Virus genome (UHGV): UHGV-0139590
Length of the DNA stretch: 33,699 nt
Direction: 5' to 3' (one strand)
Source: a virus
Made by a program: the position numbers and the translations under genes. The notes beneath the pieces are model-generated. The model made no database searches, was not told the origin of the DNA, and was given only the letters and a program-made list of their open reading frames with translations. This document shows, one piece after another, positions 12,065-32,629 of this stretch; the stretch's first letter is position 1, and each line of letters starts with the position of its first letter.

Positions 12065-12087
12065 TTCGGAGCGGGAAATTAAACACA

Positions 12088-12814: not shown

Positions 12815-13266
12815 TGAGTAATTTGCAGGAGTATTGCTTTTACGGAATGGCCGCGCTGGCCGTCTTTGATCGCTTCATCCTGAAACGTAAAAAAATCAGA
12901 CTGGTGGAGTGTGGTGATGCCGTGGTGCGGGGGCAGGCGCTGGCATTCCCGCTGCGGTTTAACGTCTCTTGCTCCCGCCTGACTGGCGCAATGGTCGAGT
13001 ACAGCCTGCGTGACTCCAAAAACCCGACGGCGGTTATCACCGGTAAGACGCGGACGCTGGATTTATCAGTAAAAGGGATGAACGAAGAGTATTTGCTGAT
13101 TGACCAACGCTACCTGGAGGCCGGGACGTGGTTTCTATCGGTCCGTGTCACTCATGGCAACAGCCGCATGAATCCGTTATACCGAATTTTCCCGGTTCAG
13201 GAATCAATTACGCACAATTACAGCGTCACAAAAGATGAGCAGGGGGTTTTCAGTGTCAGCAACTAA
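12811..13266 (+). CDS. Hypothetical protein (151 aa) with N-terminal hydrophobic segment
   Basis: ATG 12811 with strong SD AGGAGGTG; overlaps the holin stop. Confidence 0.55.
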   Translation: MMSNLQEYCFYGMAALAVFDRFILKRKKIRLVECGDAVVRGQALAFPLRFNVSCSRLTGAMVEYSLRDSKNPTAVITGKTRTLDLSVKGMNEEYLLIDQRYLEAGTWFLSVRVTHGNSRMNPLYRIFPVQESITHNYSVTKDEQGVFSVSN

Positions 13267-13879
13267 CGGCTATGTAACCCTTAACTTTGACGAACTCAAT
13301 GTTAAAGGACTGGAAAAGCTTAAAAAAGCAGTCAGTAAGGCCGGTTATGAAGTCGTGAAGGTCACACCAGCAGGCCAGGCACGGCGCAAAGACGGTATTC
13401 CAACAAAAACCTTTGAGCTGAAAGGTATCGACGAGCAGGTAATGGTTGTTCAGGTCAATAACACTGGCGACATTTCCGGCATAAAGCTCAACGGCAAAAA
13501 CTCACCGTACACGCCTGTTAAGACTATGGCCGAGCTGGGAAAAGCACTGGCCGATTTGTTTAAGAAAGGCTCGACGGCGTTCCAAAAGGCCCTGGCGCGA
13601 AAGCTGGCCCGCGCGGCTAAAAAGGACCTCGATAAGGACAAGCCAAACACCAGCAAGGGTGTGAAATCCGGCGTCCAGATGCTCAGTGATGCCCGCGCTC
13701 GCCGTGATGCGCAGAAAGAGGCGATTGAGGCCGTTAATGAAAAACTCACCGCCCTGAAAACAGAGCAGGATATGACGCAGAAGGAGCACGGCAACCTGCA
13801 AAACGAGCTAAATCTGGAAGTGGCGAAAACAACTCAACTCCAGGACCTTATTGCTAAAGCGAAAGGCGGCAACGAATGA
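13235..13879 (+). CDS. Hypothetical coiled-coil protein (214 aa; start may be GTG 13253)
   Basis: Overlaps the upstream gene by 32 nt at ATG 13235. Alternative GTG 13253 has AGGGGG 7 nt upstream. Stop overlaps the next start (ATGA). Size is similar to P1 Hdf as recalled from memory (not verified). Confidence 0.5.
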   Translation: MSRGFSVSATNGYVTLNFDELNVKGLEKLKKAVSKAGYEVVKVTPAGQARRKDGIPTKTFELKGIDEQVMVVQVNNTGDISGIKLNGKNSPYTPVKTMAELGKALADLFKKGSTAFQKALARKLARAAKKDLDKDKPNTSKGVKSGVQMLSDARARRDAQKEAIEAVNEKLTALKTEQDMTQKEHGNLQNELNLEVAKTTQLQDLIAKAKGGNE

Positions 13880-16560
13880 TTGATTTAACGAAAGAGATTG
13901 AGTTAACTGACAAGCCAAACTTTGTGGCTCCGCCTCTTACTGATTCGGTTTACGCGGAGTTAATGACGGGCAGCAGCGCCGATATGATGCTGGAAAGTGT
14001 CACTATTGACGATGTGGATCATGCCTACCTGGGCGATGAAATGCTTTACGTCAGTATCGCCACTGGCAAAGCCATGTTCGAGGCCGTCACCAGTGAGCGC
14101 CTGCGCTTGTCACAGACTATGCGCGCGTTCGCGCGCTCGCTAAACCGTGGCCTGAACGGCACCGGCATCAAAGCGGGAACCGATGACGCCGGTATTGATG
14201 AAGAGGGGCGCAAAACCATTGGCGGCGCGATCATTGGCAAGGTTCGTCGGGTGAACAACATCCCGATCATGACCGCGCTAATTCCGCTCTCTGACGGGCA
14301 GTCTATCTCACTGATTTTCCATTCCCCGACAGCGGATAACGGACGCATCAAAAATAGCGATCTGCTGGTGGCGTTTCGCTTCCTGCTGAATAAGCGCGAC
14401 GTGACGCATATCGTTGCCCCGATTGGTGGTCGTGACGTGTCGTTGCAGCAAGTAAGCCAAGCGCTGGCGAACCTTGCCGAGCGTAACAGCGCGAAATTCA
14501 CCAAACAGCAATCCGCACAGGTGAAGCTGCGCGCTGATATTGAGGGGTTGAACGCGGAAGCGGACCAACTGAGCGAGCAGCAGTCCTCCCTCCTGGAACA
14601 GGTCGAGACACACCAGCAATCCCTGATGAATAGCCAGAGTGACGCGCAACAGCTGCGAGGCAAACTCGCCACACAGCGACAGATTAACGCCGAACTGGAA
14701 GCGCAGCTGGCCGCACTGAAAACGAACGCCGGCAGTGATGTAATTACGCTTCCGGGAGAGACTGGCCGCACCTTCTCTGACACTACGCGTAAGGTGAAAG
14801 AAGGGCTTTCCATGAGCGGCACCACCACGCTCAGCAATGGTGCGGAAGTGGCCTACAAAACAGCTGACGACAACGGCGATCTGGTGGGCTGGGTACAGAT
14901 TACCGATCCTTCCGGGCAGGTTTACAAAATGCCGTCATCGTCACCCCAGGGCGCAAAGATGGGCGAAACGGCAACCAAACTGCTGAAAGCCTACCGCGAG
15001 AACAAAGCGGATAAGTTTGCCGTGGCAGCACCGGTAGAACCGACCCCGGGAAGCGATGACACACAGCAGGGAGCAGGCGCTGATTTGCAGCAGTTGGTGG
15101 CCGTCATCGGTAATGGTCTGACAGACGCGGCAGCGGCTGACTGGGCGGCGAATAAAAAAGCCACGCCTGATTTTATTCGCTTCCTGATCCGCCAGTACGG
15201 CACCGCTGATGATAAAGCCAAACAGCGATTCGTTGAAGGGATCGAGAAGAGCTGGAAAATCAAGTTGCCGGGTACGGGCAGCGACAATCGGCTGGTGGCG
15301 AAACTGGCGCGCGATTACGTTGATAGCATGAAGCGGCCAACCGGCACTGATTTCCTCAACACCTATTTCATGGGCGAAGCGCCGAAAGCCAGCCAGAACC
15401 CGGTTTACGTTCCGCACGTTGAAGGCGGTGATTTCTTTGCAGCACCAATAAATACGGCCATAGATCGCTACCGCGAAGCGCTGCCAAACCCGAAATTGAA
15501 CAGTACCCTGAAAGAGCAGGCTAATTTCCTGATCCGTCTGGTCAAGGCCGAGAAAGATTTCGAAGGCCTGGCAGAGAGCGTGGAAGATGGTTTTGCACGT
15601 CTTGCTGACGGCTCAATATTGACGCTTGAAGACGGCAAGCTGTTATTGTCCACAACCGATGACGAAACGCACAATGCGAAATACTCCGTTGACGTTGGCG
15701 ATCGCGCCCTGGAGGAAGCCATTGAAGATCTGGTGAGTTCGTATCGTCTGGGTAACGTGGAATACATGACGCCGGAAAGCCGCGAGAAAAACAATCCTGA
15801 GCCGCCAAAACCCGTTAGCCAGCCATCACCCGGCAATTACCGCTATGCGCTGGTTAACCGCCCGGCAGGCCCGGCGACTATCCCGGAAGGCAATACGGCC
15901 ATCCTGCCGCCTATATCGCAAAACGAGCCGTATGGCCGCATCGCACGCCACGGTTTCGTAACGTATGACGCGCCGCTGTCAGACGCTGATATGGCCGCGT
16001 TTGAGCTGAAACTTATCCCTACGCATGCTGATCTTGATGCGCTGGCAACGACGATCGCTCAGGGCCGCATGAACAGTTACGCCGCTGAGTATCTGGAAAT
16101 GGCGACGGATGATGCCGATACGTTCCGCTCGCAGGTCAGTATCTTTGCCCGTAAAGACGCGCCTAACGTGGCATTCCCGCAGGGCGATGATCTGGCGTAC
16201 TTCCTCCAGGCGATGAAGGTTGCGCTGGCCGAGGCGGCGAAAACCCCGCCAGCAAAAGATACAGGCCCTGCCGAAGGAGAAGAAATTGTGAAAAAAGAGG
16301 CTTCCGAAGCCGCAGGAAGCGAAGAGCCATCCGAGGCCGATAAGGCAGCGAATGATGCGCTGGCATACCTGCAAAGCATCCTGTCATTGCAGTCAAAAGA
16401 TATGGGCGTTATCCGTGAAGCACGAACCAAAGTCCGTGGCGCGATTGGTACGCTCCAGGCAGCTGGCCGTGACGTGGATAATGAACCTCTGGTAAACGAT
16501 GCTGCGCAGCACCTTTCCGATCTGCTGGTGGCAATTCAGCGTGAAGGAGCAACCGCATGA
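13876..16560 (+). CDS. Large putative virion-internal protein (894 aa), DarA-like by position
   Basis: Long ORF with good codon structure and a central coiled-coil (EQQSSLLEQVETHQQSLMNSQSDAQQLRGKLATQRQINAELEAQLAALK). Function inferred only by analogy to the P1 darA operon, which follows lydA-lydB. Confidence 0.65.
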   Translation: MIDLTKEIELTDKPNFVAPPLTDSVYAELMTGSSADMMLESVTIDDVDHAYLGDEMLYVSIATGKAMFEAVTSERLRLSQTMRAFARSLNRGLNGTGIKAGTDDAGIDEEGRKTIGGAIIGKVRRVNNIPIMTALIPLSDGQSISLIFHSPTADNGRIKNSDLLVAFRFLLNKRDVTHIVAPIGGRDVSLQQVSQALANLAERNSAKFTKQQSAQVKLRADIEGLNAEADQLSEQQSSLLEQVETHQQSLMNSQSDAQQLRGKLATQRQINAELEAQLAALKTNAGSDVITLPGETGRTFSDTTRKVKEGLSMSGTTTLSNGAEVAYKTADDNGDLVGWVQITDPSGQVYKMPSSSPQGAKMGETATKLLKAYRENKADKFAVAAPVEPTPGSDDTQQGAGADLQQLVAVIGNGLTDAAAADWAANKKATPDFIRFLIRQYGTADDKAKQRFVEGIEKSWKIKLPGTGSDNRLVAKLARDYVDSMKRPTGTDFLNTYFMGEAPKASQNPVYVPHVEGGDFFAAPINTAIDRYREALPNPKLNSTLKEQANFLIRLVKAEKDFEGLAESVEDGFARLADGSILTLEDGKLLLSTTDDETHNAKYSVDVGDRALEEAIEDLVSSYRLGNVEYMTPESREKNNPEPPKPVSQPSPGNYRYALVNRPAGPATIPEGNTAILPPISQNEPYGRIARHGFVTYDAPLSDADMAAFELKLIPTHADLDALATTIAQGRMNSYAAEYLEMATDDADTFRSQVSIFARKDAPNVAFPQGDDLAYFLQAMKVALAEAAKTPPAKDTGPAEGEEIVKKEASEAAGSEEPSEADKAANDALAYLQSILSLQSKDMGVIREARTKVRGAIGTLQAAGRDVDNEPLVNDAAQHLSDLLVAIQREGATA

Positions 16561-16895
16561 CGTTAACCGCACTGGAACGGCTGGACCTGAATGACCAGCT
16601 CGATGAGCTGATGATTCAGGCCCAAACGGCCAAGGGGCTGGACCTTCTCGATCTGAATGACCAGATTGAAGAGGTTATGTTAAAGCTGGGGTTCGGCAGC
16701 ACCCGCGCCGCGCCTACGGATACGATCCCGTCCGTTGTCACGGAGTTTTTGGCCGGGAAGTTCGTCAACCAGCCGCAGATGGATTTTGTGGATACTTTGC
16801 GCGAGGTAGGCGCGTATCTGGACCAGTTCTTGTCGCTGGACGATATGCGGCAGCAGGTGCGAACCTGGATCGCCAAAAACAATTACGCCATGTGA
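16557..16895 (+). CDS. Small acidic protein (112 aa)
   Basis: ATG 16557 with GAAGGAG upstream; overlaps the upstream stop. Followed by a strong terminator. Confidence 0.6.
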   Translation: MTLTALERLDLNDQLDELMIQAQTAKGLDLLDLNDQIEEVMLKLGFGSTRAAPTDTIPSVVTEFLAGKFVNQPQMDFVDTLREVGAYLDQFLSLDDMRQQVRTWIAKNNYAM

Positions 16896-16901
16896 AACAA
16901 G

Positions 16902-16924
16902 GCCCCGGAAACGGGGCTTTTTTT
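16902..16924 (+). terminator. Rho-independent terminator (GCCCCG-GAAA-CGGGGC + T7)
   Basis: Seven nt after the stop of the 112-aa gene; perfect stem and T-run. Confidence 0.7.
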
Positions 16925-16925: not shown

Positions 16926-18135
16926 GTTCGCCGGTCGAAATCACAGCGTTTTATCCGTAATAGATTCAACGTTTATAAGGATGAACGGTTATTGACATCT
17001 TCCCGCCCTAAAGGATGGGGATTCCTACAGCCAGACGGCGATGCCCCGCCGCGAGAATGTTCTTTGCGGCGTTTACGTCGCGGTCGTGAGCGGTTCCGCA
17101 CTCACAACAAGTCCAGTCTCTTATTCGCAAGCCTGCTCTACCTTTCGGACTGTTAGCGGAGATAGCCCCGCAACACGAACAAGCCTGGGTGGAATATTTT
17201 TCGTTAACGACTTCGAACACTACCGACCGCGCAATCGCTTTGTATTTCAGTTGTGTTTTGAGCATGAACCAGCCAGCGTCCAGAACGCTTTTAGCCATTT
17301 TGGTTTTAACCAGTTTCTTACTGCTCACGTCGCCTACGAATATTGCCGCATGGCTGTTTACCAGTGCCGTGCTGTACTTATGCAGTGCATCTTTGCGGCG
17401 GTTCTTAATTTTGGCGTGAATGGCGCGTACGCGGGCTTTTTTGTTCGCCCTCTGCGCCTTGCCTAATGCGGGTTGCAGGTCACGATAAAACCTACCTGCA
17501 ACCAGTGGATCACCCTCTGACGGGGTGGCGTAGTCCTTTAATCCCAGATCTATGCCGATAGCTGTTATTCCCGTTGTCGGGGTGGTTTCGACTTCTACGC
17601 AGACATTGAAATACCAGCGCCCCCGACTATCTTCTGAAAAGCTACCGGCGCGGAATTTATAACCCGCCAGTCCGTAGCTATCCCACACCTTAAAATAGTG
17701 GCCTGCGAACTTGACGCAGCCATTTTGCCATTGCGCCTGCTTCGATTTAAACGGCACCCAGCCCAGAGAACGGCGAGCTCCGCCACTGACACGCCAGCGC
17801 AGACGCGAGCGTTTAAACTGCTTCCGCGCTTTGCCGTGGTCTGCGATCACTTCCTGCACCGTGGCGCTGCCGATGATATAGCCGCGCTCTTTCTGAATAC
17901 CTGCCGTCATCTTCTGAACGTCGAACGCCGACAGCCAGCGGGGAATTTGCGCACCAAAAGCGCCAGCGTTGCTGTATGCCTCGCTGGTTATCTCGTTTGC
18001 CAGATTAAAGACCTGATTGACCTCAAAGGCCATCTGCCGCAAAACGGCGGCGTGGCGGTCTTTAACCCGGACGGATAATGTTTTGATGCGCGTATTCATG
18101 CTCATTACTCCCGCCCGCAGGCGGGAGCCTCCGGG
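16926..18135 (-). mobile_element. IS200/IS605-family insertion element carrying only tnpB (IS1341-like); boundaries approximate
   Basis: Single TnpB ORF, with a perfect 8-bp stem / 4-nt loop hairpin (18108-18127) immediately upstream of its start, as in subterminal left-end hairpins of this family. No tnpA and no terminal inverted repeats, as expected. Confidence 0.6.
17008..18105 (-). CDS. tnpB: TnpB (IS605 OrfB-family RuvC-like, RNA-guided nuclease family), 365 aa
   Basis: RuvC-like motifs GIDLGLKDYATPSEG and HDRDVNAAKNIL; zinc-finger cysteines CSCCG...CCECG near the C-terminus. ATG 18105 with GGGAG upstream. Confidence 0.8.
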   Translation of the reverse strand: MSMNTRIKTLSVRVKDRHAAVLRQMAFEVNQVFNLANEITSEAYSNAGAFGAQIPRWLSAFDVQKMTAGIQKERGYIIGSATVQEVIADHGKARKQFKRSRLRWRVSGGARRSLGWVPFKSKQAQWQNGCVKFAGHYFKVWDSYGLAGYKFRAGSFSEDSRGRWYFNVCVEVETTPTTGITAIGIDLGLKDYATPSEGDPLVAGRFYRDLQPALGKAQRANKKARVRAIHAKIKNRRKDALHKYSTALVNSHAAIFVGDVSSKKLVKTKMAKSVLDAGWFMLKTQLKYKAIARSVVFEVVNEKYSTQACSCCGAISANSPKGRAGLRIRDWTCCECGTAHDRDVNAAKNILAAGHRRLAVGIPIL

Positions 18136-18666
18136 TTAGATCACAAACCAGTCTTCGGCCTGCTCGTCATTCAGCGAAGGGAAAAATTCCACCTCACCTC
18201 CATTAGAATCGAGCAAAAATAAATCATCATTTTCAATGAGAACGTAGCTCGCCGGAACCCAGCTAAGACGCCCTATGAATCGACCAGTACGCGCTGAAAA
18301 ACGCAGTGCTAATTCATACTTCACGTTGCGCCCCCGAAATATTCCAGTAGTTAATCTGAGGGCGATTTGTCGCAGTAAACCGGGCAGAAAAGATACAAGG
18401 TGCGTCGGGTAGTTGAGAACGGGCTTCGGATTCGCTTGCAGCAATAACCGTGTGATAGCGGCGTTTCTGGCAGGAATAGAAGCGCCATATAAATTCAGAG
18501 TGAATCTGGGTAGGGATTGCCAGCATGAGCTGATCTCCGATAACAGTTTAAAACTATCACCACCTGGAGTTTCCACGCTCTGATTGGTGGTGACGCTGAC
18601 GGGGGTGGAAATACCGGCGTTATCGGGAACCGGCCAGCCCGAGAGCTGCCCCGCCAGCGCCACCAT
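18136..18666 (-). CDS. Hypothetical protein (176 aa), weak call
   Basis: Longest ORF in a region with several overlapping ORFs on both strands. No clear SD. Ends exactly at the IS left boundary. No HUH motif, so not TnpA. Confidence 0.3.
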   Translation of the reverse strand: MVALAGQLSGWPVPDNAGISTPVSVTTNQSVETPGGDSFKLLSEISSCWQSLPRFTLNLYGASIPARNAAITRLLLQANPKPVLNYPTHLVSFLPGLLRQIALRLTTGIFRGRNVKYELALRFSARTGRFIGRLSWVPASYVLIENDDLFLLDSNGGEVEFFPSLNDEQAEDWFVI

Positions 18667-18718
18667 AATTTTGTGCGGATCTGTGCCGCTGAATATGGGG
18701 GTACTGACTTACGACAAT

Positions 18719-18741
18719 AAAAAAAGACGCCTGGCGCGTCT
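18719..18741 (-). terminator. Hairpin (AGACGC-CTGGC-GCGTCT) with T7 on the minus strand
   Basis: On the minus strand the stem is followed by TTTTTTT; on the plus strand it is preceded by A7. Confidence 0.4.
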
Positions 18742-18994
18742 GTTGTCGCCGATAACAATTTGCCGGGTTTCCACGCCCGTGCAGACCTTTTTCGTCTGCG
18801 AGAGCAAATGTAACCACCCGGAATGCAGTTTGCAACCACTTTGATTACATATCGGATGACAACAACATTGCCATACTGTCATACAATCGCACTGTAATAC
18901 AATAACAATTAGATTTACTGTTATTTTTCTTCGGTCAGTTGATTGCACATAGTTCATATCATCCCGTTACCGAAAACAGTTAGAGGGCAGGGCA

Positions 18995-20374
18995 TTGAAT
19001 GAATTAACGAATGCCATTGATAACACCGCTGGCGTGGATAGCCTGGTGGCACTGGTAGCATCACTGCATTTCAGCCAGACCGGGTTAGGCCGGACATCTT
19101 TTGTCGTGACCAGCAAAGGAGATGAGGTCAAAACCAGTTTTAAGGTGATCGATGCCCGAAGCCTGGTTATCTCCAACAATCTGGACGGCACCATTAACCC
19201 CAAATTCCCCGCCGAGTTGCAACCGCGCGACCGCACCCGCATGGCGAGCAAAATTCAGGTGAGCAAAATAGCGGGCAACCTGCGACCGGCCCAGCTGAGC
19301 GACTCCGGGCTTAGTAGTCACGGCGCGCCGATTGTCGGCCTGGATAACGTTGTCGAATCCGGTAACGGGCGCTCAATGGGTATTTTGCGCGCCTACGAAC
19401 AGGGGCAGGCGGACAGCTACCGGCTGTACCTGATTGAGCATGCTGTCGACTACGGGCTGAAAGCGTCGGACATTGAGAAGATGGATATGCCGGTGCTAGT
19501 GCGCGAGCGCATAACTGACGTTGACCGCGCGAAGTTTGCCCGCGATTCTAACCAGTCAGATTTACAGGAAATGGCCGCGAGTGAAAAAGCGTTTGTAGAC
19601 GCTGAAATGCTCGACGAGCGGCTCATGGCGATGTTTGCGCCATCAGATGAAGGCAATCTGTTAGCCCGCACCAACGACGCGTTTATTCGGGCATTCATGA
19701 AGGAAATTGGCGACACGGCCTCAGCTGGCCTTGTAACCACTGACGGGCGACCAACCAAGCAGCTGATTGACCGAATCCAGAATGCTATTTTTGCCAAAGC
19801 TTACAAAGATGAGCGTTTAGTAAAGCTGGTGGCAGAGGAGCCGGACCCGGATATGCGTAATATCCTGACCGCACTCAATACCGCAGCGAGCGATTTTGCC
19901 AAGATGCAGATGCTATCCGGCGACGTTCACAAGCAGGCGGTTGACGGGCTGGTGAGCGGCGTGGAGGAGGTGAGCGGGCTGGATAAACAGGCCATCGCCG
20001 CGCTACAGGATGCAATAAACCTCGTCCGCCAGGCGAAGGACAGCGGTCAGGCAATCGAAGAGGCGATCGCCCAGCAGGGATTGTTTGAGGAGACGAGCAA
20101 AGAGGCCGAGGCGCTGGCGCTCTTTATCGTGGCGAACAACCGTAGCGCAAAACGTATCGGCGCAGCATTCAAGAAGCTGGCGCAGAAAATTAACGCAGAG
20201 CTAACCCACCAGCAGCAGGCGTTGGGGGATATGTTTGGCGGGGGTGATTTATTGCTGGTGGACGTGCTTAGTGCGGTTTCACGCGAGATTGAAGAGGAGT
20301 TCGGCGAAGGGAAAGGGCTGAATTTTGCGATGTTTGAATCCGCAGCGGGTGCGGGGGATGTAGCCGTAAACTAA
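18995..20374 (+). CDS. ParB/Srx-like N-terminal domain protein (459 aa), TTG start
   Basis: TTG 18995 is the first start-like codon after an in-frame TAG at 18950, with GAGGG 7 nt upstream. Motif PIVGLDNVVESGNGRSMGILRAYEQG parallels the ParB box (for example P1 ParB ...ILDGSRRRASAIL). No adjacent parA. Confidence 0.6.
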   Translation: MNELTNAIDNTAGVDSLVALVASLHFSQTGLGRTSFVVTSKGDEVKTSFKVIDARSLVISNNLDGTINPKFPAELQPRDRTRMASKIQVSKIAGNLRPAQLSDSGLSSHGAPIVGLDNVVESGNGRSMGILRAYEQGQADSYRLYLIEHAVDYGLKASDIEKMDMPVLVRERITDVDRAKFARDSNQSDLQEMAASEKAFVDAEMLDERLMAMFAPSDEGNLLARTNDAFIRAFMKEIGDTASAGLVTTDGRPTKQLIDRIQNAIFAKAYKDERLVKLVAEEPDPDMRNILTALNTAASDFAKMQMLSGDVHKQAVDGLVSGVEEVSGLDKQAIAALQDAINLVRQAKDSGQAIEEAIAQQGLFEETSKEAEALALFIVANNRSAKRIGAAFKKLAQKINAELTHQQQALGDMFGGGDLLLVDVLSAVSREIEEEFGEGKGLNFAMFESAAGAGDVAVN

Positions 20375-20380
20375 TTGAAA

Positions 20381-20402
20381 GCCCGCTTAATGCGGGCTTT
20401 TT
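20381..20402 (+). terminator. Rho-independent terminator (GCCCGC-TTAAT-GCGGGC + T5)
   Basis: Seven nt after the stop of the ParB-like gene. Confidence 0.65.
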
Positions 20403-20412: not shown

Positions 20413-20432
20413 CTAAAACACAAACTGATTAC
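20413..20432 (+). promoter_or_regulatory. Conserved promoter-like box, copy 4 (CTAAAACACAAACTGATTAC)
   Basis: Follows a terminator and precedes the hydrolase gene by about 33 nt, the same arrangement as copies 2 and 3. Confidence 0.35.
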
Positions 20433-20464
20433 GGTGAATTCTTCTTTCAACTGAGGAATTCACT

Positions 20465-20956
20465 ATGAGTCAAACCGCAGAACAGCGCTGGGTAACAGAA
20501 GCGCGTAAAAATCTCCACGTCCGCGAAATCAAAGGTCCGCAGCATTGCCCGGAAATTCTGCAATACTGGCGCGACATCAAACGTGGCGGCATCAAAGACG
20601 ATGAAACACCCTGGTGCGCCGCTTTCGTCGGTGCCATGCTGGAGCGCGTCGGTATCCAGTCAACCCGCTTTGAATCGGCCCGTAGCTACCTGAACTGGGG
20701 AACCGAGCTTCGCGAGCCAGTGCCAGGATGTATCGTTGTATTCACCCGCGATGGCGGCGGTCATGTCGGCTTTGTTGTCGGCCAGAACGAGAATCGCGAT
20801 CTGCTGGTGCTGGGCGGCAATCAGTCCGATGCCGTCAATGTCCGCGCCTTCCCACGCGCCCGCGTTACCGGCTATCGCTGGCCTGCCGGTGAAGCACTCC
20901 CGGGTGATGTTCGCCTGCCTGTTACCACTGCGCAGAAGTCCACCAGCGAAGCGTGA
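20465..20956 (+). CDS. CHAP / NlpC-P60-like peptidoglycan hydrolase (163 aa), candidate endolysin
   Basis: ATG 20465 with GAGGAA upstream. Putative catalytic Cys in DDETPWCAAFVGA and His in DGGGHVGFVVG, typical of CHAP-type amidase/peptidases. Confidence 0.7.
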   Translation: MSQTAEQRWVTEARKNLHVREIKGPQHCPEILQYWRDIKRGGIKDDETPWCAAFVGAMLERVGIQSTRFESARSYLNWGTELREPVPGCIVVFTRDGGGHVGFVVGQNENRDLLVLGGNQSDAVNVRAFPRARVTGYRWPAGEALPGDVRLPVTTAQKSTSEA

Positions 20957-25317: not shown

Positions 25318-28300
25318 ATGGCAAACACTGTATTGGATCATCTGAACAGTGCCGGATCGCTGGATGAGATTGTTACCCTCATTCTTCGGCTGCGAAAATC
25401 GCGCGCCGTGGCACAGTTCGGCATTGTCAAAGAGGACGGCGTGAGTATTCAGCGCGCGCGGCGAGCTGCAAATAACGCTGCAATGCGCCTGCTGCAAGAG
25501 CTGCCGGAGAACATGGACGGCAATAAGCTGACTGACGAACAGCGGCAGGTGCTGGCCGGTTATACCGGGGAAGGGGGCCTGACAGACGGAGGCAGTCAAT
25601 ACGAGTATTACACTCCACAGTTTATGGCAGAGGGTATCTGGGATCTGATGGCCGATTATGGCGTTACATCAGGCCACGTCCTGGAACCGTCCGCCGCAAC
25701 CGGCATCTTCCAGGAAACCAAGCCGCAGGGGGCGATCATGACCGCCGCCGAAATTTCGCCGGTTTCTGGCCGCATCAACCAGCTGCTGCACCCGGAAGAC
25801 GATGTGCGCATGGGGGCATTTGAGGACCTGGCCGCGAACGTGGGCGATGACACCTACGATCACGCCGTCGGCAATATCCCGTTCGGTGAAAGCCGTACCG
25901 GATATGCTGAGCGCGATCCGGCGTACAAAGGGGAAACGAACGTCGGGCATTACTTTGTCCTGCGTACCATCGACAAGGTGAAGCCGGGCGGGCTGGTGGT
26001 GCTGGTGGTGCCAAACGGCATGACCGACGGCGGCGGAACCAACAAAAAGCTGCGTGATAAAGTGGCGCGCCGCGCGGAGTTTCTGGGGGCGCACCGTATG
26101 CCGTCCGGCACTTTCGCCGAAAGCGGCACCGCGACAGTGGTTGACGTGTGGGTACTGCGTAAACACACCCGCGCGCTGGCAGAGATCGTCAGCAATGCCG
26201 ACGATAAAACCCTGACCGCCGCCCACGTACTCTGGCCGACGTTCCTCAAGGGCAAATGGTTTGCGACTGAGGGCAAGCGGTTTGTCCACGGCGAAACAGA
26301 GCGATCCAGCTTCAACAACATTCTGACGGTCAAAAAAGACGGCCGCGTAACCAATGAAGGCATGAAACAGGCGTTATCGCGCCGGTTTGACAGCCGTATC
26401 GCCTGGGAAATGCTGGACGTGAACCAGGATGCATACAAAGGCGCGAATGAAGGTGATAAGCGGCTGGTGGGCGGTATCTGGCATGTTTATGACGGCGAAA
26501 CGTGGGTCCGTGACAGTACGACCGATCGCAGCGGCATTGACGCGGAACGCTTCGGGGCGCAGACCTTCGGGGATCTCCAGACAAAATGCCGGTCGCTGCA
26601 TGGCCTGCTGTCTCTCAGCGCCAGCCAGCTCGCCGCCATTGCTGATGTCTATCCGGCGCTGCTGACCGATCGCCAGCACAACGTGATGACGTTTGCTCGC
26701 CAGCAAAAGCCATCCCAGCGCGAGCGCGCGCTGCGTGGGGCGCTGATTGGCCTCACCATCAACGATGCGCAGGACCTGATCGCCCAGGGCAATGATGCAG
26801 GCCCGCTGCTGGCCGACGCCGCGCGTATGGTTGAACAGGAAATTGCGGTCTATGGCTCACCAAACGGCCTGCGCCTGGCCGGGCTTTCCGATCCCGCGGC
26901 TAAAGGCTGGCTGACCTTCCAGGGCAACGTTACCCGCGACAGTAAGCTCTCTGATTTGTTGACCGGTCGCCTTAATACCGAGTCTGTTTCTCCGGTCGAT
27001 ACCGGCAACCCTGAGCAGGTTGTGGCACACCTTTTCAGCCAGATTGACCTGGTGCCGGTGTCGCTTGAGCAATTCCGTGACTATTGCACCGCGCAGCTGC
27101 CGTCCTCAGATGACGCGCTTCTGGACTACCTGGCGAACTTCCCGGAAATCGCGCTCGATGGCTACGGCAACATTCTGCCGATGTCGCGCGCCACCAGCGG
27201 CAACGTGCGCGGGAAAATGACCACGCTGGCCGCGCAGATAGCCGGACTCCAGGACGGCCCGCAAAAGCAAAATCTGGTACGCCAGATGATGCTGATTGAC
27301 GAAAAGCGTAACCCGGTCCCGATCGACAAAATCACGGTAAACCTTAACGCCCGCTGGCTTGATCGTCGTTTGATTAAAGAGTTTCTGGCCGAGCAGGGTT
27401 ATGACGCTTTTAAATACACCCAGGACATTCAGGTGGAAGACGGTTTCCTTGTCTCCCCGGATGATTACGCGGGCAAGGACGGCGTTTTCAGTGGCTATAA
27501 GCTGCGCACCGTTACCAGCAAGGGTGTCACTGAATTTAAGCAGGCCAACAACAGCGACGGCTTTTTAAACCAGCTGGAAAACTACCTTAACGGCGTCAAG
27601 CCGCGCGGGGTGAATGCTGCCCAGTACCTGGATCGCATCGGCAAGCTGGAAGCCTCTTTCAACGACTGGCTGAAATCGCACCCGGACGTTACCGGCGTTG
27701 AGAATGATTACAACGACGCGTTTAACAACTACGTCCCGTTCGAGCATTCCAGCGAATCTCTGAGTCTCGAAGGCATTTCCGGCAAACGTATCCCGCTGAG
27801 TTACCAGAACTCCGAGGTTCGCCGTCTTTCAGAGGACGGGCGCGGCATTATGGGATTCGGCACCGGTCTGGGTAAAACCACGACCGCGCTGGCGCTGGAG
27901 GCGTTTAACTTCCAGCATGGCCGCTCAAAACGGACCGCGATTGTCGTACCGAAGGCCGTTTATCAGAACTGGTATCACGAAGCGCGCGACTTCTACGGTG
28001 ACGCGGCATTCAGTCAGATGCTTTTTATCGGACTGGATGAAGTGATGGGCGATAACGGTATTCAGCAATCGCAGGTACGCAACGAGAACAACGAACCGGT
28101 TACGGATAGCGACGGCAACCCGGTAATGCGTAATGTCCTCAAGGATGCCGATACCGCCACCATTCTGGAGCGTCTGAACCGTATCCCTGCGTCGAATTAT
28201 CGCTCAGTCATCATGACAAAAGAGCAATTCGGCATGATCCCGATGCGCCCGGAAACGATTGAAGAGAACTCCGCGCAGGCGCTGTATAACGCCGTCGATA

Positions 28301-31300
28301 TGGGCCGCACTGACCTGATGAAATCGACGCACCGCGCAGAGCTGGCGAAGAACAAACTCAAAGACAAGGCCGCAGACACCGGCACCGAGAAGAAACAGCA
28401 GGTTCCGTACTTTGAGGACATGAACTTTGACAACGTGATCGCAGATGAAGGCCACAACTACAGGAACTCGCTTTCTGCTGGCCGTGAAACCGCGCAGCTG
28501 GCGTACCTGCCTAACCCGGCTGTATCGCAGATCGCGCGTGATATGTCGGTCAAGTCAGCCTGGTTGATGAAGAAATACAACGGGCGCGGCGTCACGCTGC
28601 TGACGGCCACACCGCTCGTTAACTCGCCGCTCGATGCCTTCAACATGTTGAGCCACGTCGTGCCGGTTGAAGACTGGAAGGCAATGGGCATCCTGACACC
28701 GGACGACTTTGTGCGCGTGTTCGGCGAAACCGCAAACGTGGTGGTGCAGAAGATATCCGGCGAACTGATGGATAAGCAGGGGCTGGTGGGCTTTAAAAAC
28801 CTGGACGGGTTGCGCGGTATCTTCCATCGCTGGACCACGTTAAAGACCGCTGCTGACGTGAAAGAAAGCGTCAAAATCCCGGACCTGAACGAGAAAAACG
28901 TAGAGGTTCCGCTGACCGATGAGCAGAAAGAGCTGTACGAAGCGTTGCGTAAGCGCGCCAGCCTGATCGGGCAGAAAGAGATCATCACCAAAAATGAAGA
29001 CGGCACGGTAACAGTCGAGCAAAACAAAGACGATGATTTTATCTTTTCCGTTATCCGCGACATGGACAAGATGGTTATCGACCCGGACTTATACCGATCG
29101 TCGCTGACCTTCCGTTTCCTGCCTGCCGATCTGGAAAAGGTCAAAGTTATTGCGGCCAGTCTGCCAGCCCATGCGGGTGGCAAAGAGGCCGATGATGATG
29201 ACGAGGTGGAAGAAAACGAGGCCGGGCTGGTGGACACTCGCACCAGTAAGGTTGTGGCAACGACCGTGACCGAAAAGGCCGACGCTACAGAGCTGATGGT
29301 CAGCGTGGATCTGGAAGCTGAGGTGATGAAAGCGATCGCCGCTGCCGGTATCAGTATGAAAACCGTCACGCACCCTATCCCGCCAAAATATGCGGCCATG
29401 ATTGAGAACCTGAAAGCCGGGATGCAGAACGGCAAGCAGATCATCTTTATGGACGAAAAGACGCAGCACAACAAACTACGCCGCATCATCGCCAGCGCGC
29501 TGGGGCTGGATGAAGGCCAGATAGGGATCATTAACGCCACGACTGTCAGCAAGGCAACCGGGCCGAAACTCAAGAAGGTTAAAAAGCCGGTTGAGCCTGC
29601 CGAGCGCGCCGACGGCAATTACAAAGAGGGTGCGTGGGAAAAATATTACGCCGACCTGGCACGATATGAAGATTACCAGTCTGCGCTCAATGACGTGTCG
29701 CTCTCCGGCATGGAGGGGATCGCCGCCGACTACAACGAAGGCCGGACCCCGATTGTTATCTGCAACAAAAAGGCAGAGGTCGGCATTAATTTGCACAAAG
29801 GCACTACGGATATTCACCATTTAACCTTCCCCTGGACGCCAGCGAGTATTTCGCAGCGTAACGGGCGCGGGGCGCGTGTTGGTTCCAGCCAGGACTCGGT
29901 GAATGTGCATTACTACTGCGGCCAGGGATCGTTTGATGAATTCCGTCTCCAGACGCTACAGCGCAAAAAGGACTGGATTAATCAGATCATGACATCCGAC
30001 ATGTCCACCTACAAAAACGGTGACGTGGATGAGAAAGATGAAATTAATCTGATGCTGGCCGCGAACCCGGAAGAGCGACAGGCGCGCATTAATGCCCAGC
30101 TGGCCGCACGTCGTGAAGTTGAACGACTCCGTGCTGAGAAGGAAGCCGAAACCGCGCTCGATGTGTACCTGCGCGCGTCCGTGGCAGCGAAAGAAGATCC
30201 GGTGGTGCTCGCCAGCCGCCTGGAGAGTGCCGAGCAAAAACTCACAGCGCACGAAGCGAAGGTGGAAGAATACCGCGCTTGGGTGAACAAAGAGGAAAGC
30301 GACTACAACAGCTGGATGGAAAGTCACGGCAAGCGCAGCGCAGATATTTACCACGCTGAACCGCGCCGCCGTGCTCGCTCAACCCTGAAAACAGCAGTTG
30401 AAACTCTGGTGGAGCTGAAAACGGATGTGAAGAAAGCACGTAACGTGCTCAGTCGGTCGAAAAGCGCCTCAACGATGGTGAAGCGGGCGCGCGGCGATCT
30501 GGAGCGTAGCATTAAAGCAGGCATCATTGACGTTGATCCCGATGTGCTGCTTAACCCGTCGCAGTACGTGAAAACGGCAACTGGCACCCTGCTGAAAGCT
30601 GGGGCGTATTACTGGATCGTTGGTGATTATCGCTACGTTGGTCGAATCACCCGCCTGATGCCTGATCAGGGTGCGGTGGAAGTGGATGTGATGTATGCCC
30701 CCATTAACGCGAATAGCTACAGGACACCGGGCGGAGGCGTGAGAGAAGTGCTGATGTCGAAGGTACGCGATCAGGTTGACGTAACCGAAAGCCAGGCCGT
30801 CGCCCGTCGCCGCGCTAACGCTGGTTTGTGGCCTTCCGAAGTCGCATCCACGCTCAGCCGTGCGGAGTTTATCGACGCCGTAGCGGGTAATTACCTGCGC
30901 GTGAAAGGCGATACATGGATGCAATATTCCGACGCCGGCACACTGGAAATGTTTTACGTTGCGGGTGGACTCAGCAGCGATAACCCGGAGCGCCTGGTTT
31001 ACCCGGACAGCAACGACGAAGGTTTAAAGCGCGCTATGTATCAATTCTCCGTGAACAACGGCATCTATTCCGTGCGCACCATGTATTCGGCGGTATTCGG
31101 TGAGAACTACAGCGAAGTGCTGGAAGGGTACGGCGAACAGGCAACGATGGCCGATGCGCTGGACATCTTCGAAACCGCTCGCCGGGAAGCCGAGAAGGAC
31201 AGTGGTGCGATCCTTGCCGGTGCATCAGAAGAAGAGGTGAATTCTGCCTTCTTCAATGGCGTGGATAGTGCCGTGCGCTTCTGGCAAGGCAGTCTGTCAG

Positions 31301-32160
31301 TGCGCAAGGTGATGACACACAGCAAGCGGTTCAGCAACCAGACGGAGATCCGCCAGTTTATCAGCACCATTCTGGACGATCGCATTGCCGTCAAGATTGA
31401 TGAGATTAACGAGGCCGTAGGGCGCGCCGCGAAAGAGCTGTACGCACAGTGCGAACGCCTGGAAGGGCGAACGGCGCTGGAGGAAGTGCGCCAGCTGGAT
31501 GACATGGACATTTCCGGCTTTATGAATCGCGCGCAGCAGTCGCGTAACCTGATGGCGCTCAACCTGCCCGAGCTGGTGATGGCCGGTGTGCTGGTGGGCG
31601 CATATTCACGTCAGATGGTCAATGCTGGTGTGTTCACGTCAGGAAGCCGGGTGCGTCAGCTGCTGGACTCTGGCCGCTACAAGTTGAAAGAGGTTAAAAA
31701 CGGGGGCTACAAGCCGCTTGCAGCCTCTTTTGATGAGTGGCTTGGCCTGATGGCCGGTGATCTCTCCGATACCGAGCTGGCCGCGCTGCGCGAGGCAGAA
31801 GAGGCCCGCAAGGCCAGCGAGGCAGAAGTCTTTGCCGGTCAGCAGGCGGCGGCAGGCGAATACGGTTATGTTGCCAGCACCAACCAGCAGGAGCTGGCAG
31901 GCCAGCGCAAATGGAAAAACCGCACGTTCAGAATGAGTTTCCCGGCTGGTGGTGCGCATGTGCTGAGTGACAGCAACGGTCGCGCCACGCTCAAAGCGAA
32001 GGCTGTACGTACCATGCTGAAAGAGAAGTACGGCGCGCAATTCTGGAACTTTGAAGACGATCCGGTGGCGGGTAATGAGTTTACCCAGCCAGCATGGATT
32101 GTGCCGTCACGATTCCCTATTGAACAAATTCACAGTGATATTCAGGCACTGGTCAGCTAA
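25318..32160 (+). CDS. darB: Giant N6-adenine methyltransferase / SF2 helicase fusion (2280 aa), DarB-like anti-restriction virion protein
   Basis: MTase motif I VLEPSAATGIF (about 25678-25710) and motif IV GNIPFGE (about 25866-25889). Helicase motifs GFGTGLGKTT, DEGH, LLTATP and QRNGRGARVG between about 27850 and 29880. Size and architecture match P1 DarB (about 2255 aa), next to portal/protease as in P1. Confidence 0.75.
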   Translation: MANTVLDHLNSAGSLDEIVTLILRLRKSRAVAQFGIVKEDGVSIQRARRAANNAAMRLLQELPENMDGNKLTDEQRQVLAGYTGEGGLTDGGSQYEYYTPQFMAEGIWDLMADYGVTSGHVLEPSAATGIFQETKPQGAIMTAAEISPVSGRINQLLHPEDDVRMGAFEDLAANVGDDTYDHAVGNIPFGESRTGYAERDPAYKGETNVGHYFVLRTIDKVKPGGLVVLVVPNGMTDGGGTNKKLRDKVARRAEFLGAHRMPSGTFAESGTATVVDVWVLRKHTRALAEIVSNADDKTLTAAHVLWPTFLKGKWFATEGKRFVHGETERSSFNNILTVKKDGRVTNEGMKQALSRRFDSRIAWEMLDVNQDAYKGANEGDKRLVGGIWHVYDGETWVRDSTTDRSGIDAERFGAQTFGDLQTKCRSLHGLLSLSASQLAAIADVYPALLTDRQHNVMTFARQQKPSQRERALRGALIGLTINDAQDLIAQGNDAGPLLADAARMVEQEIAVYGSPNGLRLAGLSDPAAKGWLTFQGNVTRDSKLSDLLTGRLNTESVSPVDTGNPEQVVAHLFSQIDLVPVSLEQFRDYCTAQLPSSDDALLDYLANFPEIALDGYGNILPMSRATSGNVRGKMTTLAAQIAGLQDGPQKQNLVRQMMLIDEKRNPVPIDKITVNLNARWLDRRLIKEFLAEQGYDAFKYTQDIQVEDGFLVSPDDYAGKDGVFSGYKLRTVTSKGVTEFKQANNSDGFLNQLENYLNGVKPRGVNAAQYLDRIGKLEASFNDWLKSHPDVTGVENDYNDAFNNYVPFEHSSESLSLEGISGKRIPLSYQNSEVRRLSEDGRGIMGFGTGLGKTTTALALEAFNFQHGRSKRTAIVVPKAVYQNWYHEARDFYGDAAFSQMLFIGLDEVMGDNGIQQSQVRNENNEPVTDSDGNPVMRNVLKDADTATILERLNRIPASNYRSVIMTKEQFGMIPMRPETIEENSAQALYNAVDMGRTDLMKSTHRAELAKNKLKDKAADTGTEKKQQVPYFEDMNFDNVIADEGHNYRNSLSAGRETAQLAYLPNPAVSQIARDMSVKSAWLMKKYNGRGVTLLTATPLVNSPLDAFNMLSHVVPVEDWKAMGILTPDDFVRVFGETANVVVQKISGELMDKQGLVGFKNLDGLRGIFHRWTTLKTAADVKESVKIPDLNEKNVEVPLTDEQKELYEALRKRASLIGQKEIITKNEDGTVTVEQNKDDDFIFSVIRDMDKMVIDPDLYRSSLTFRFLPADLEKVKVIAASLPAHAGGKEADDDDEVEENEAGLVDTRTSKVVATTVTEKADATELMVSVDLEAEVMKAIAAAGISMKTVTHPIPPKYAAMIENLKAGMQNGKQIIFMDEKTQHNKLRRIIASALGLDEGQIGIINATTVSKATGPKLKKVKKPVEPAERADGNYKEGAWEKYYADLARYEDYQSALNDVSLSGMEGIAADYNEGRTPIVICNKKAEVGINLHKGTTDIHHLTFPWTPASISQRNGRGARVGSSQDSVNVHYYCGQGSFDEFRLQTLQRKKDWINQIMTSDMSTYKNGDVDEKDEINLMLAANPEERQARINAQLAARREVERLRAEKEAETALDVYLRASVAAKEDPVVLASRLESAEQKLTAHEAKVEEYRAWVNKEESDYNSWMESHGKRSADIYHAEPRRRARSTLKTAVETLVELKTDVKKARNVLSRSKSASTMVKRARGDLERSIKAGIIDVDPDVLLNPSQYVKTATGTLLKAGAYYWIVGDYRYVGRITRLMPDQGAVEVDVMYAPINANSYRTPGGGVREVLMSKVRDQVDVTESQAVARRRANAGLWPSEVASTLSRAEFIDAVAGNYLRVKGDTWMQYSDAGTLEMFYVAGGLSSDNPERLVYPDSNDEGLKRAMYQFSVNNGIYSVRTMYSAVFGENYSEVLEGYGEQATMADALDIFETARREAEKDSGAILAGASEEEVNSAFFNGVDSAVRFWQGSLSVRKVMTHSKRFSNQTEIRQFISTILDDRIAVKIDEINEAVGRAAKELYAQCERLEGRTALEEVRQLDDMDISGFMNRAQQSRNLMALNLPELVMAGVLVGAYSRQMVNAGVFTSGSRVRQLLDSGRYKLKEVKNGGYKPLAASFDEWLGLMAGDLSDTELAALREAEEARKASEAEVFAGQQAAAGEYGYVASTNQQELAGQRKWKNRTFRMSFPAGGAHVLSDSNGRATLKAKAVRTMLKEKYGAQFWNFEDDPVAGNEFTQPAWIVPSRFPIEQIHSDIQALVS

Positions 32161-32194: not shown

Positions 32195-32629
32195 ATGACA
32201 ACGTTAATCGACACCGTTTTACCGACCGAAGAGCATCTGGAAGGGATTTTAATCGCGCATGCGCTGGAGGGGCGGGAAGAGGGCGAGTTTGTGGAGGCTT
32301 ACCTGCGCGGGCTGGAGCAACGGCTTGCGGCCAACTCTCTTTCGTACCGGGCATTTGGTCCGTGGTGGCCTGCACTGAAAACCATGCTCCTGGAGCGCGG
32401 CATCACAACCTGGGGGCAGATCGTTGATAGTGACGTGGCCGAGATTTACAGCATGCGCAGACCTGCATTGACGCTGGTAGCAGCACATCTTTATGCTGAT
32501 GAAGTCGCGGATACTGGTAATATGTTCAGTGCTGATCATCTGCTCAGCGTTATGCCGTCCGCTGACGACACGGAGCCGTATCATTATGTGAGCTACGATG
32601 AGTCTGTGGAGAAGTACAAACTGAAATAA
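32195..32629 (+). CDS. Hypothetical protein (144 aa)
   Basis: ATG 32195 chosen; the ORF-track start at 32051 would overlap the 3' end of the DarB-like gene. Weak SD. Confidence 0.45.
   Translation: MTTLIDTVLPTEEHLEGILIAHALEGREEGEFVEAYLRGLEQRLAANSLSYRAFGPWWPALKTMLLERGITTWGQIVDSDVAEIYSMRRPALTLVAAHLYADEVADTGNMFSADHLLSVMPSADDTEPYHYVSYDESVEKYKLK

Follow-up and report, generated by a model that had tools for sequence, protein, structure and literature searches.

Within a stretch of 33,699 nucleotides of the virus genome UHGV-0139590 (the window in the following, always at its full length), a reading frame of 459 codons with a TTG start and a TAA stop encodes a protein with a ParB-like domain. The protein is labeled "hypothetical" in public records, and an earlier note on this DNA called it an orphan ParB protein that may belong to a partition or an anti-defence module. 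This raises the question of which system the gene is part of and what the function of its ParB-like domain might be.

The TTG codon is the earliest start-like codon downstream of an in-frame stop, TAG 18950-18952, and is preceded by a Shine-Dalgarno sequence (Table 1), as had been proposed in the earlier note. GGAG or GGAGG is likewise found ahead of the TTG starts in D6 and Citrobacter. At the aligned position, TTG is also present in L008 and ET210, GTG in Leclercia L001 (in-frame at 12030 of that element) and ATG in P1 and Pantoea. The window gene contains an ATG at codon 83, which had been mentioned as a possible true start. This codon cannot be the start, since the Pfam domain comprises residues 41-172 and the conservation among homologs begins at residue 4. 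Judged from the sequence, TTG 18995 is the correct start, and the product has 459 aa, a mass of 49.4 kDa and a pI of 4.84.

The surrounding genes reveal that the window represents a P1/D6-like phage-plasmid, in which the full set of six Dar genes is present (hdf, darA, ddrA, ddrB, darB and ulx). The protein is 61% identical to DdrB of P1 (residues 4-452) and 76% identical to DdrB of D6. Furthermore, 449 of its 459 residues are identical to an ORF called by PGAP in the E. coli ET210 plasmid NZ_CP100991. It matches PHROG 2299 with an E-value of 1e-225, the match being confined to positions 22-446 of 995; in NCBIfam, no model for DdrB or DdrA is present. Querying the phage collection by megablast with this region yielded no match, and the relatives were found among plasmids and by searches on protein level. 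The gene order hdf-darA-ddrA-ddrB is common to the window and the elements of P1, D6, Leclercia, Citrobacter and Pantoea. Here, ddrB is surrounded by lysis, Dar, portal and prohead protease genes, which is a phage late or virion context. The gene lies next to the tnpB gene and upstream of a CHAP/TIGR02594 hydrolase gene (20465-20956), as described before. The label orphan has to be withdrawn: the gene is the ddrB of a Dar antirestriction locus of the P1 type, which is complete, and its product is a regular member of a family already known. This corrects both annotations, and the protein should be counted neither as a partition gene nor as a novel defence gene.

Table 1. Features of the ddrB region and of the Dar locus in the window.
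Feature	Position	Strand	Evidence or remark
hdf	13235..13879	+	Pfam DarA_N; phrog_1620 Hdf-like
darA (894 aa)	13876..16560	+	Pfam DarA_N, DarA_C
ddrA	16557..16895	+	phrog_1855 DdrA-like, E 5.9e-39
Intrinsic terminator	16899..16920	+	3' of ddrA; backbone feature, in Leclercia too
Left copy of ddrB late-promoter box	16938..16958	+	AAATCACAGCG; insert parts box from -10 element
~2-kb insert	16957..18941	-	between ddrA and ddrB; found in ET210 but not in L001 and L008
tnpB	17008-18105	-	inside insert, upstream of ddrB; Pfam OrfB_IS605 and Cas12f1-like TNB
icd-like ORF	18314-18526		inside insert
C4 antisense RNA	18583-18670		inside insert; Rfam C4, 80.7 bits
Diverged late-promoter-like copy	18942..18962	+	ATTGCACATAG-TTCA-TATCAT, directly 5' of ddrB
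Shine-Dalgarno GAGGG	18983..18987	+	7 nt 5' of TTG
Short-form ddrB	18995..20374	+	Pfam ddrB-ParB, E 2.9e-38; identity to P1 and D6 DdrB
N-terminal ~30 residues	18995..19084	+	outside module shared with polyvalent proteins
DdrB-like ParB/Srx-fold domain	19115..19510	+	residues 41-172; invariant L75-Q-P-R-D-R80, R82, V120-E-S-G-N-G-R126
Acidic all-helical domain	19511..20353	+	residues ~173-453; AlphaFold model secondary structure; pI 4.6
Deletion junction and tail	20354..20374	+	GGGGATGTAGCCGTAAACTAA; ddrB codon ~456 in frame with last 3 hxr codons and stop
Stem-loop terminator	20378..20400	+	3' of ddrB; 3' of hxr in long-form relatives
darB (2280 aa, methyltransferase and SNF2 helicase)	25318..32160	+	Pfam N6_Mtase, SNF2-rel_dom, Helicase_C
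ulx	32195..32629	+	phrog_1629 Ulx-like, E 2.6e-44

For P1, DdrB has been identified as a head protein with 39 peptides and helps to add DarB to the capsid (PMC9024508). It is known from P1 alone that DdrB is packaged into the capsid and leaves it together with the DNA (PMC9024508; PMC5512222), as part of the Dar (defence against restriction) system that shields injected phage DNA. The packaging order has been reported to be Hdf/DarA, followed by DdrA, DdrB, DarB and Ulx (PMC12810830), and ddrB is non-essential (PMC10695390). The window gene very probably encodes a short form of DdrB, which belongs to the six internal head proteins of a P1-type Dar system. DdrB would be produced late in infection and would be taken up into the procapsid once Hdf, DarA and DdrA have been loaded, possibly via its N-terminal ~30 residues. 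Within the procapsid, it would aid the loading of DarB and finally be ejected along with the DNA, allowing the incoming genome to escape type I restriction (EcoK/EcoB type). The ParB/sulfiredoxin-fold domain with its predicted arginine pocket (GNGR126 and QPRDR80), which is invariant in the superfamily, would be expected to act on a nucleotide by binding or hydrolysis, to touch DNA, or both.

The Pfam family ddrB-ParB (PF18763) is the only domain reported by Pfam for the protein (131.2 bits, with the cutoff at 27.6) and is covered over profile positions 2-120/121. The DdrB-ParB family, including solo forms and a predicted C-terminal metallopeptidase, has been described by Iyer et al. (2017; PMC5512222). 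The ParB-like motif noticed earlier, VESGNGRSMGILRAYEQG, is located at residues 120-137. Within this motif, E121-S-G-N-G-R126 is identical in 43 of 43 aligned homologs, and besides R126 also R78 and R80 are invariant, which suggests that R126 is the highly conserved arginine of the predicted active-site pocket. Y134 and Y142 are invariant as well, the latter being placed by the model in a helix (140-148) that is flanked by helix 124-135 and strand 166-172. Further invariant residues are N68, D79 and D117, one of which may correspond to the lineage-specific Asp/Asn at the end of strand 2 in the paper. Sequence searches of the PDB, using either the protein or a profile of the 43 sequences, revealed no ParB relative and the fold was therefore tested with predicted models. 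The only matches in these searches were chance hits to saposins and a portal match, which is due to the InPase appendage that Vibrio homologs carry. The models display a ParB/Srx alpha/beta fold, for which the best structural matches are KorB and ParB-N domains at an identity of only 8-13%, in line with the fold previously proposed.

The remainder of the protein (residues 176-459) is acidic and helical, as had also been recognized, and no specific structural or fold match was found for it; the ParB-like part has a pI of 8.2 versus 4.6 for this helical part. Both domains are co-conserved in proteins of 450-4500 aa, and residues ~30-450 align as a single unit of ~420 aa with thousands of phage polyvalent proteins. 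Thus, the helical region is part of a conserved module and not a loose tail. The polyvalent-protein homologs match from about residue 30 only, and the residues ahead of it form two helices in the model (2-9 and 14-27). In P1, residues 1-30 of DarB direct a reporter to the capsid (PMC9024508). The N-termini of DdrB and DarB display a weak similarity in shuffle tests and hhalign, and no match in BLASTP. By analogy, the N-terminal ~30 residues of DdrB are a possible capsid-targeting peptide.

An extra feature of the window allele, absent from the earlier note, is a C-terminal deletion from a protein of ~1000 aa. The long forms (995 aa in P1, ~1014 aa in Leclercia, and a long form in Citrobacter as well) contain ~540 further C-terminal residues, and the 1014-aa form is 94% identical to the window protein over residues 1-456. 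In the alignment, the proteins of the window, D6 and Pantoea stop a few residues past FESxxG, whereas the long forms run on to an HExxH motif, HE(L/A)GHH, near residue ~900. The window protein ends at residue 459 and therefore lacks this predicted metallopeptidase region. The deletion endpoints at 20359/20365 of the window correspond to 13394/15348 of L001, which carries a short direct repeat containing GATATC at the junction sites. As read from this junction, a deletion of ~1.95 kb across the repeat has removed the C-terminal HExxH half together with nearly all of hxr, the small lost ORF being an Hxr homolog. The present allele originated from a long form of ~1000 aa in this way, with the remaining module being kept by selection. 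A second, different ddrB deletion allele exists in Leclercia, and the right ends of these two alleles on one Leclercia-type backbone lie within 4 bp of each other.

The ddrB genes of the window and the ET210 plasmid share the same junction and insert and differ by 85 synonymous and 12 non-synonymous substitutions, corresponding to a dN/dS of 0.035 at a dS of 0.33. Such a ratio indicates that the short allele is kept under purifying selection. Short forms are also found in D6, Pantoea and Vibrio, and stand-alone forms of ~450 aa occur in many Vibrio and Photobacterium elements. One could speculate that the metallopeptidase half and hxr form a detachable cassette, which is repeatedly lost by P1-like phage-plasmids, the window capturing a single loss in which the microhomology junction is preserved; at present this appears rather unlikely. 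If true, the ParB-plus-helical module of ~450 aa would be the self-sufficient functional core of DdrB, and in some hosts the peptidase half would be either unnecessary or selected against, for example if it is sensed by a host defence.

Upstream of ddrB, what had been noted as an IS is a composite insert (Table 1). Uninterrupted Leclercia backbones contain the intact box AAATCACAGAG-CTTT-TACCAT ahead of ddrB, and from this comparison the insert splits the predicted late promoter of ddrB itself. The copy of the box remaining ahead of the window gene matches at 7 of 11 positions only, so that expression of ddrB is not assured; transcription may start from this diverged late promoter. P1-type late promoters (AAGTGACTT-N4-TAnnnT) were not found in the window, and a lineage-specific box was found instead. 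A CTGTCA-16-TACAAT site at 18876-18903 was set aside and not relied on, because sites in the sigma-70 scan were no more numerous than in shuffled sequences. In the ET210 relative, Tn3 cuts the portal gene, and this lineage may therefore be defective.

Alternatively, the C-terminal deletion and the insertion into the promoter could have inactivated ddrB, with the reading frame surviving only by chance. The loss of ~540 residues, the separation of the late-promoter box from its -10 element, the dispensability of ddrB in P1 (PMC10695390) and the Tn3 in the portal gene of ET210 would all fit such a decaying remnant. It is nevertheless improbable, since the reading frame runs uninterrupted to a clean in-frame stop, the dN/dS of 0.035 was obtained between plasmids with the same junction and insert, stand-alone forms of ~450 aa exist in the viable phage D6 as well as in Pantoea, Vibrio and Photobacterium elements, and the truncation coincides precisely with the boundary of the module in polyvalent proteins. 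A centromere-binding CTPase clamp of the phage-plasmid, as implied by the partition half of the earlier proposal, would agree with the ParB/Srx fold, its best structural matches and the nature of the element as a plasmid prophage. Clamps of the ParB/KorB/Noc type and ParB-like nucleases or kinases (PadC, SbnI, sulfiredoxin, Osa) share the N-terminal alpha/beta fold and a conserved arginine-containing GxxR-type loop with the window DdrB, but at an identity of only 8-13%, and the latter lacks an HTH, parS, a ParA partner and a dimerization domain. Neither adjacent to ddrB nor anywhere in the 33.7-kb window is a parA present; no parS lies nearby, and repeats between 16500 and 21000 are short and two-copy only, without any array near ddrB, as stated before. 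An HTH or dimerization domain was not detected by Pfam or in the helical part, and ddrB occupies a conserved Dar operon slot among late head and lysis genes. P1 itself has a separate parA/parB elsewhere. As far as the sequence goes, a partition role is excluded, with hardly any probability left to it, and the anti-defence half of the earlier proposal stands, in the form of the Dar antirestriction locus.

More weight has to be given to an injected enzyme acting outside a scaffold role in the Dar system, which might sense or degrade nucleotides or nick DNA and be directed against host or rival DNA or a nucleotide defence signal. The GNGR and QPRDR pocket residues are invariant in the 43 aligned homologs of a family with 5,699 cluster representatives, the domain adjoins methylases, helicases, InPase and other effector domains in polyvalent proteins, and an NTP-sensing, NTP-degrading or DNase activity has been argued by Iyer et al. 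(PMC5512222). On the other hand, biochemical data on DdrB-like ParB domains were not present in the papers retrieved, and a search from 2018 on for "DdrB-like" plus ParB retrieved no paper. The sole role found for the P1 protein, as given in secondary sources, is DarB loading and protection against EcoB and EcoK (PMC12810830; PMC9024508). An independent enzyme is possible but falls short of being probable, and it would be compatible with a short-form DdrB of the Dar system rather than exclude it.

As a short-form DdrB, the window protein resembles P1 DdrB in its slot after hdf-darA-ddrA, its ddrB-ParB domain, its helical module and the co-occurrence of darB and ulx. P1 differs in its ATG start, the retained C-terminal part of ~540 aa with HExxH and the overlapping hxr; its ddrA-ddrB gap comprises 13 nt, whereas a terminator and the 2-kb insert separate the two genes in the window. 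Closer in length are D6 gp102 (454 aa, "similar to P1 gene ddrB"), which also has a TTG start, and the 458-aa homolog of Pantoea pEuc3. These natural short forms are 76-80% identical to the window protein and end within a few residues of it. They have other downstream genes and other C-terminal tails and, since no trace of the hxr-tail fusion is present, are probably of independent origin. Internal segments of polyvalent proteins of 450-4500 aa (PF18763; Iyer et al., 2017) are 40-56% identical and have the late or virion context in common. Here, the module of the window stands alone with a P1-specific N-terminal extension of ~30 residues, whereas other lineages have it fused with domains of the InPase, LPD3, methylase, helicase or peptidase type.

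Natural short alleles under strong purifying selection would delimit the minimal functional DdrB unit to the ParB-like and the helical domain, about 450 aa. This represents a compact construct for probing the role of DdrB-type ParB domains and the need for the peptidase half in packaging. P1 DdrB is reportedly processed to ~76 kDa ahead of packaging (PMC5512222), and a 49-kDa DdrB without the predicted peptidase may behave differently.

By its profile matches and gene context, the ParB-domain protein of the window is the DdrB of a P1/D6-like phage-plasmid. Pfam returned a single strong match, ddrB-ParB (PF18763, E 2.9e-38, residues 41-172), which bears out the ParB domain proposed in the earlier note. 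In PHROG 2299, residues 27-453 align with positions 22-446 of a 995-position profile, and this was a first sign that the protein represents about half of something longer. Its sequence shares 61% identity with DdrB of phage P1 (residues 4-452) and 76% with the homolog in phage D6. The surrounding DNA has counterparts in plasmids of 88-95 kb from Leclercia, Citrobacter and Pantoea, where the gene order is holin, lysis protein, hdf-like gene, darA-like "head protein", ddrA and ddrB homolog, followed by a TIGR02594 hydrolase, prohead protease, portal and a large SNF2 protein. The operon lydA-lydB-hdf-darA-ddrA-ddrB is common to P1 and D6, as in these relatives. All six genes of Dar, the antirestriction system of P1, are present in the window (Table), next to tail, baseplate, tail-fibre, lysis, portal and protease genes. 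Since the Dar gene set is complete, the protein is not the orphan it had been taken for. It agrees with the DdrB-like ParB family in the defining features tested and occupies the ddrB position of a complete Dar locus; the full architecture of P1 DdrB is not reached, its C-terminal half being absent. A partition ParB was rejected, as every tested feature failed and parA, HTH and parS were lacking; the earlier note had likewise seen neither parA nor parS.

Table. Coordinates of the Dar genes and associated features in the window
Feature	Position	Strand	Remark
hdf	13235-13879		
darA	13876-16560		
darA segment without counterpart in Leclercia pE1_003	15031-15830		about 800 bp
ddrA	16557-16895		
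Insert between ddrA and ddrB	about 16957-18941		
tnpB	17008-18105	-	OrfB_IS605 and Cas12f1-like TNB domains (Pfam)
icd-like ORF	18314-18526	-	named after ET210 annotation
'Ash family' match (Pfam/PGAP)	about 18505-18666		overlaps C4 RNA gene
C4 antisense RNA	18583-18670	-	Rfam RF01695, 80.7 bits
Diverged promoter copy	18942-18962		insert right end
ddrB	18995-20374	+	Pfam ddrB-ParB
Antisense ORF within ddrB	19450-19797	-	115 aa
darB	25318-32160		
ulx	32195-32629		
Late-promoter-like motif	12046-12066	+	before 12088 ORF
Late-promoter-like motif	12444-12464	+	before holin operon
Late-promoter-like motif	20415-20435	+	before CHAP gene
Late-promoter-like motif	25250-25270	+	before darB
Late-promoter-like motif	25278-25298	-	before prt

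Neither the family nor the system is new, and even stand-alone forms of short length have been described before (D6; the "solo form" of Iyer et al.). In this respect the finding is ordinary, a gene of known kind left as "hypothetical" by public pipelines. The new points are small, namely the deletion junction, a second independent deletion allele, strong selection on the minimal module, a promoter-splitting insert and a candidate late-promoter motif.

The ORF starts with TTG and encodes 459 residues (49.4 kDa, pI 4.84). A TAG at 18950-18952 precedes the open frame, which makes TTG 18995 the earliest possible start; GAGGG lies 7 nt 5' of it, and the next candidates are the GTG codons 14 and 18. 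The ParB-box-like motif covers residues 120-137. Residues 31-175 have a pI of 8.2, whereas residues 176-459 (pI 4.6) are all-helical in the predicted model. Thus, the TTG, the Shine-Dalgarno sequence, the motif and the acidic helical remainder had been described accurately. The TTG is further supported by the aligned position, which is TTG in D6, Citrobacter, a second Leclercia genome (GCA_037149475.1, L008) and the E. coli ET210 plasmid, GTG in Leclercia pE1_003 (L001) and ATG in P1 and Pantoea. The internal ATG (codon 83), earlier named as a possible true start, would cost one third of the Pfam domain as well as 80 conserved residues and is therefore dismissed. For the same reason, the PGAP/RefSeq start of the long pE1_003 DdrB (GTG 12201, WP_327062146.1) is probably too far downstream, since it drops 57 conserved residues and the beginning of the Pfam domain; here, the in-frame GTG 12030 aligns with the TTG/ATG starts of other homologs. 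An antisense ORF inside ddrB occupies roughly the position of iddB, which the P1 annotation places on the strand opposite to ddrB ('internal to ddrB'); the ORF is probably not a real gene. P1 iddB is non-essential (PMC10695390).

Searching the PDB with the sequence and with a profile revealed no detectable relative of the protein. Invariant in 43 homologs are L75-Q-P-R-D-R80, R82, V120-E-S-G-N-G-R126, Y134 and Y142. They fit the DdrB-like ParB family as described by Iyer et al. (2017, PMC5512222), in which a pocket arginine is conserved and an additional helix carries a conserved tyrosine. They also appear akin to the NPxQPR and GERR boxes known from canonical ParB. An exhaustive search yielded 5,699 cluster representatives at E <= 0.001, 1,842 of them at E <= 1e-30. 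In most, query residues ~30-450 align in one piece to internal positions of proteins of 450 to ~4,500 aa. The helical "tail" therefore belongs integrally to a module of ~420 aa that occurs in phage polyvalent proteins.

Close relatives differ in what is appended at the C-terminus. Forms of ~440-480 aa (Leclercia, Pantoea, Vibrio and Photobacterium) have no appendage, Vibrio forms of ~615 aa carry an InPase domain and one other form an LPD3 domain, and in P1, Leclercia and Citrobacter ~540 further residues are present, with HE(L/A)GHH at their end. For this C-terminal part an autoprocessing metallopeptidase has been predicted (Iyer et al., PMC5512222) and the database record of P1 DdrB carries the remark "possible metallopeptidase"; a Pfam search of P1 DdrB detected no peptidase domain. 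The InPase domain of the Vibrio homologs (residues 471-603 of one of them, P0056) matches the C-terminal end of the solved phage portal protein gp19 (PDB 9b41 chain L, E 4.7e-22), which places the same domain inside the virion of another phage.

The window is collinear with pE1_003 but for two differences. Window 18946-20359 corresponds to L001 11978-13394 and the window from 20365 to L001 from 15348, and 1,953 bp of L001 are missing. A similar short sequence is found at both endpoints of the missing segment, GGGGATATCGATCCGTA (G-D-I-D-P-Y) inside ddrB and GGCGATATCATCGTAAACTAA (G-D-I-I-V-N-stop) at the end of a 96-aa downstream ORF, while the window junction reads GGGGATGTAGCCGTAAACTAA (G-D-V-A-V-N-stop). 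This ORF is homologous to P1 Hxr (41% identity, E 2e-13) and to a 97-aa ORF of Citrobacter. In P1, Citrobacter and Leclercia alike, hxr overlaps the end of the long ddrB, so that long ddrB plus hxr is their shared state. The most likely origin of the window allele is a deletion between the copies of a short direct repeat, by which ddrB codon ~456 was joined in frame to the final three codons of hxr and the hxr terminator was retained. Judged by the junction alone, the opposite event would also be possible, in which a cassette was inserted and the repeat duplicated. Over residues 1-456, a 1014-aa long form is 94% identical to the window protein.

The ddrB of L008 (5001-6425, 474 aa) lies on the same Leclercia-type backbone and lacks L001 13448-15351, again the C-terminal half together with hxr. 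Its left endpoint (L001 13447) differs and its right endpoint (15352) lies within 4 bp of that of the window; as aligned, it is a second, independent deletion of the same kind. In D6 (454 aa) and Pantoea (458 aa) the protein stops at nearly the same point as the window DdrB, a few residues away at most, but the neighbour genes differ.

The ET210 plasmid (NZ_CP100991), the nearest relative with this short ddrB allele, shares the junction, the TTG and the upstream insert, with 92.7% identity over 13 kb and 449 of 459 DdrB residues identical. The two ddrB genes differ by 85 synonymous and 12 non-synonymous changes (dS 0.33, dN/dS 0.035); against the N-terminal half of the Leclercia long form, dN/dS is 0.042. 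Since both plasmids share the junction, strong purifying selection acted on ddrB after the truncation. As a caveat for this comparison, the ET210 portal gene (12674-14173) is truncated beside a Tn3-family transposase, and the element is probably a defective phage-plasmid.

No late promoter boxes of the P1 type occur in the window. AAAWYAYARAS-N4-TAnnnT occurs five times (0.02 expected), always correctly oriented toward a late gene or operon. Its layout, box-N4-TAnnnT, is that of the annotated P1 promoters LPdar, LPlyz and LPpro (late, Lpa-dependent), although the box sequence differs; we infer a candidate late promoter of this lineage. Uninterrupted Leclercia backbones carry an intact box, AAATCACAGAG-CTTT-TACCAT, between the ddrA terminator and ddrB, which in the window is separated from its -10 element by the insert. 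The right end of the insert holds a diverged copy of ~45 bp of this region, including ATTGCACATAG-TTCA-TATCAT, and the late promoter of ddrB may therefore persist.

The insert, ~2 kb in length, is missing in L001 and L008. It had been called an IS; tnpB is indeed present, but no tnpA was seen, and the insert also holds a C4 RNA and an icd-like ORF. Matches to other enterobacterial copies (84-86% identity) are confined to the tnpB ORF. With the C4 RNA upstream of the icd-like ORF and of a tnpB that stands alone, each on the minus strand, this is an immI-like c4-icd module in an unusual location. Of the overlapping 'Ash family' and C4 annotations, one may be an artefact of the other.

Identity, architecture and selection are shown here; everything beyond them is carried over from P1 or inferred. 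In the P1 head, DdrB is represented by 39 unique peptides (59.5% coverage), and its listed role is to help add DarB to the capsid (PMC9024508); it is processed to ~76 kDa prior to packaging (PMC5512222). Hdf/DarA are loaded before DdrA, DdrB, DarB and Ulx, the proteins are ejected with the DNA, and protection against EcoB/EcoK relates to DdrB, DarB and Ulx (PMC12810830). Dar works only in cis, on packaged DNA (PMC12707154), and P1 ddrB is non-essential (PMC10695390). For the ParB-like domain, two activities have been put forward, that of an NTP-regulated DNase or that of a sensor/degrader of NTPs (PMC5512222). On this basis, the window DdrB would be expressed late, loaded into the capsid, where it would help to load DarB, and co-injected as a Dar component, its ParB-like pocket binding nucleotide or DNA.

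The N-terminal ~30 residues of DdrB (18995-19084) and DarB (25318-25407) look alike, with a patch of small residues and then an amphipathic helix (e.g. NTAGVDSLVALVASL vs NSAGSLDEIVTLILRL). In shuffle tests, p was 0.007 for the window, 0.014 for Leclercia and 0.10 for P1; hhalign returned a P of 0.0016 at a probability of only 16%. Because residues 1-30 of P1 DarB are a capsid-targeting signal (PMC9024508), this weak likeness may reflect a shared targeting helix.

In darA, the blocks flanking the segment without counterpart are only ~85 bp apart in pE1_003. DarA comprises 894 aa in the window, 639 aa in P1 and 1021 aa in L008; its middle region is therefore highly variable in length.
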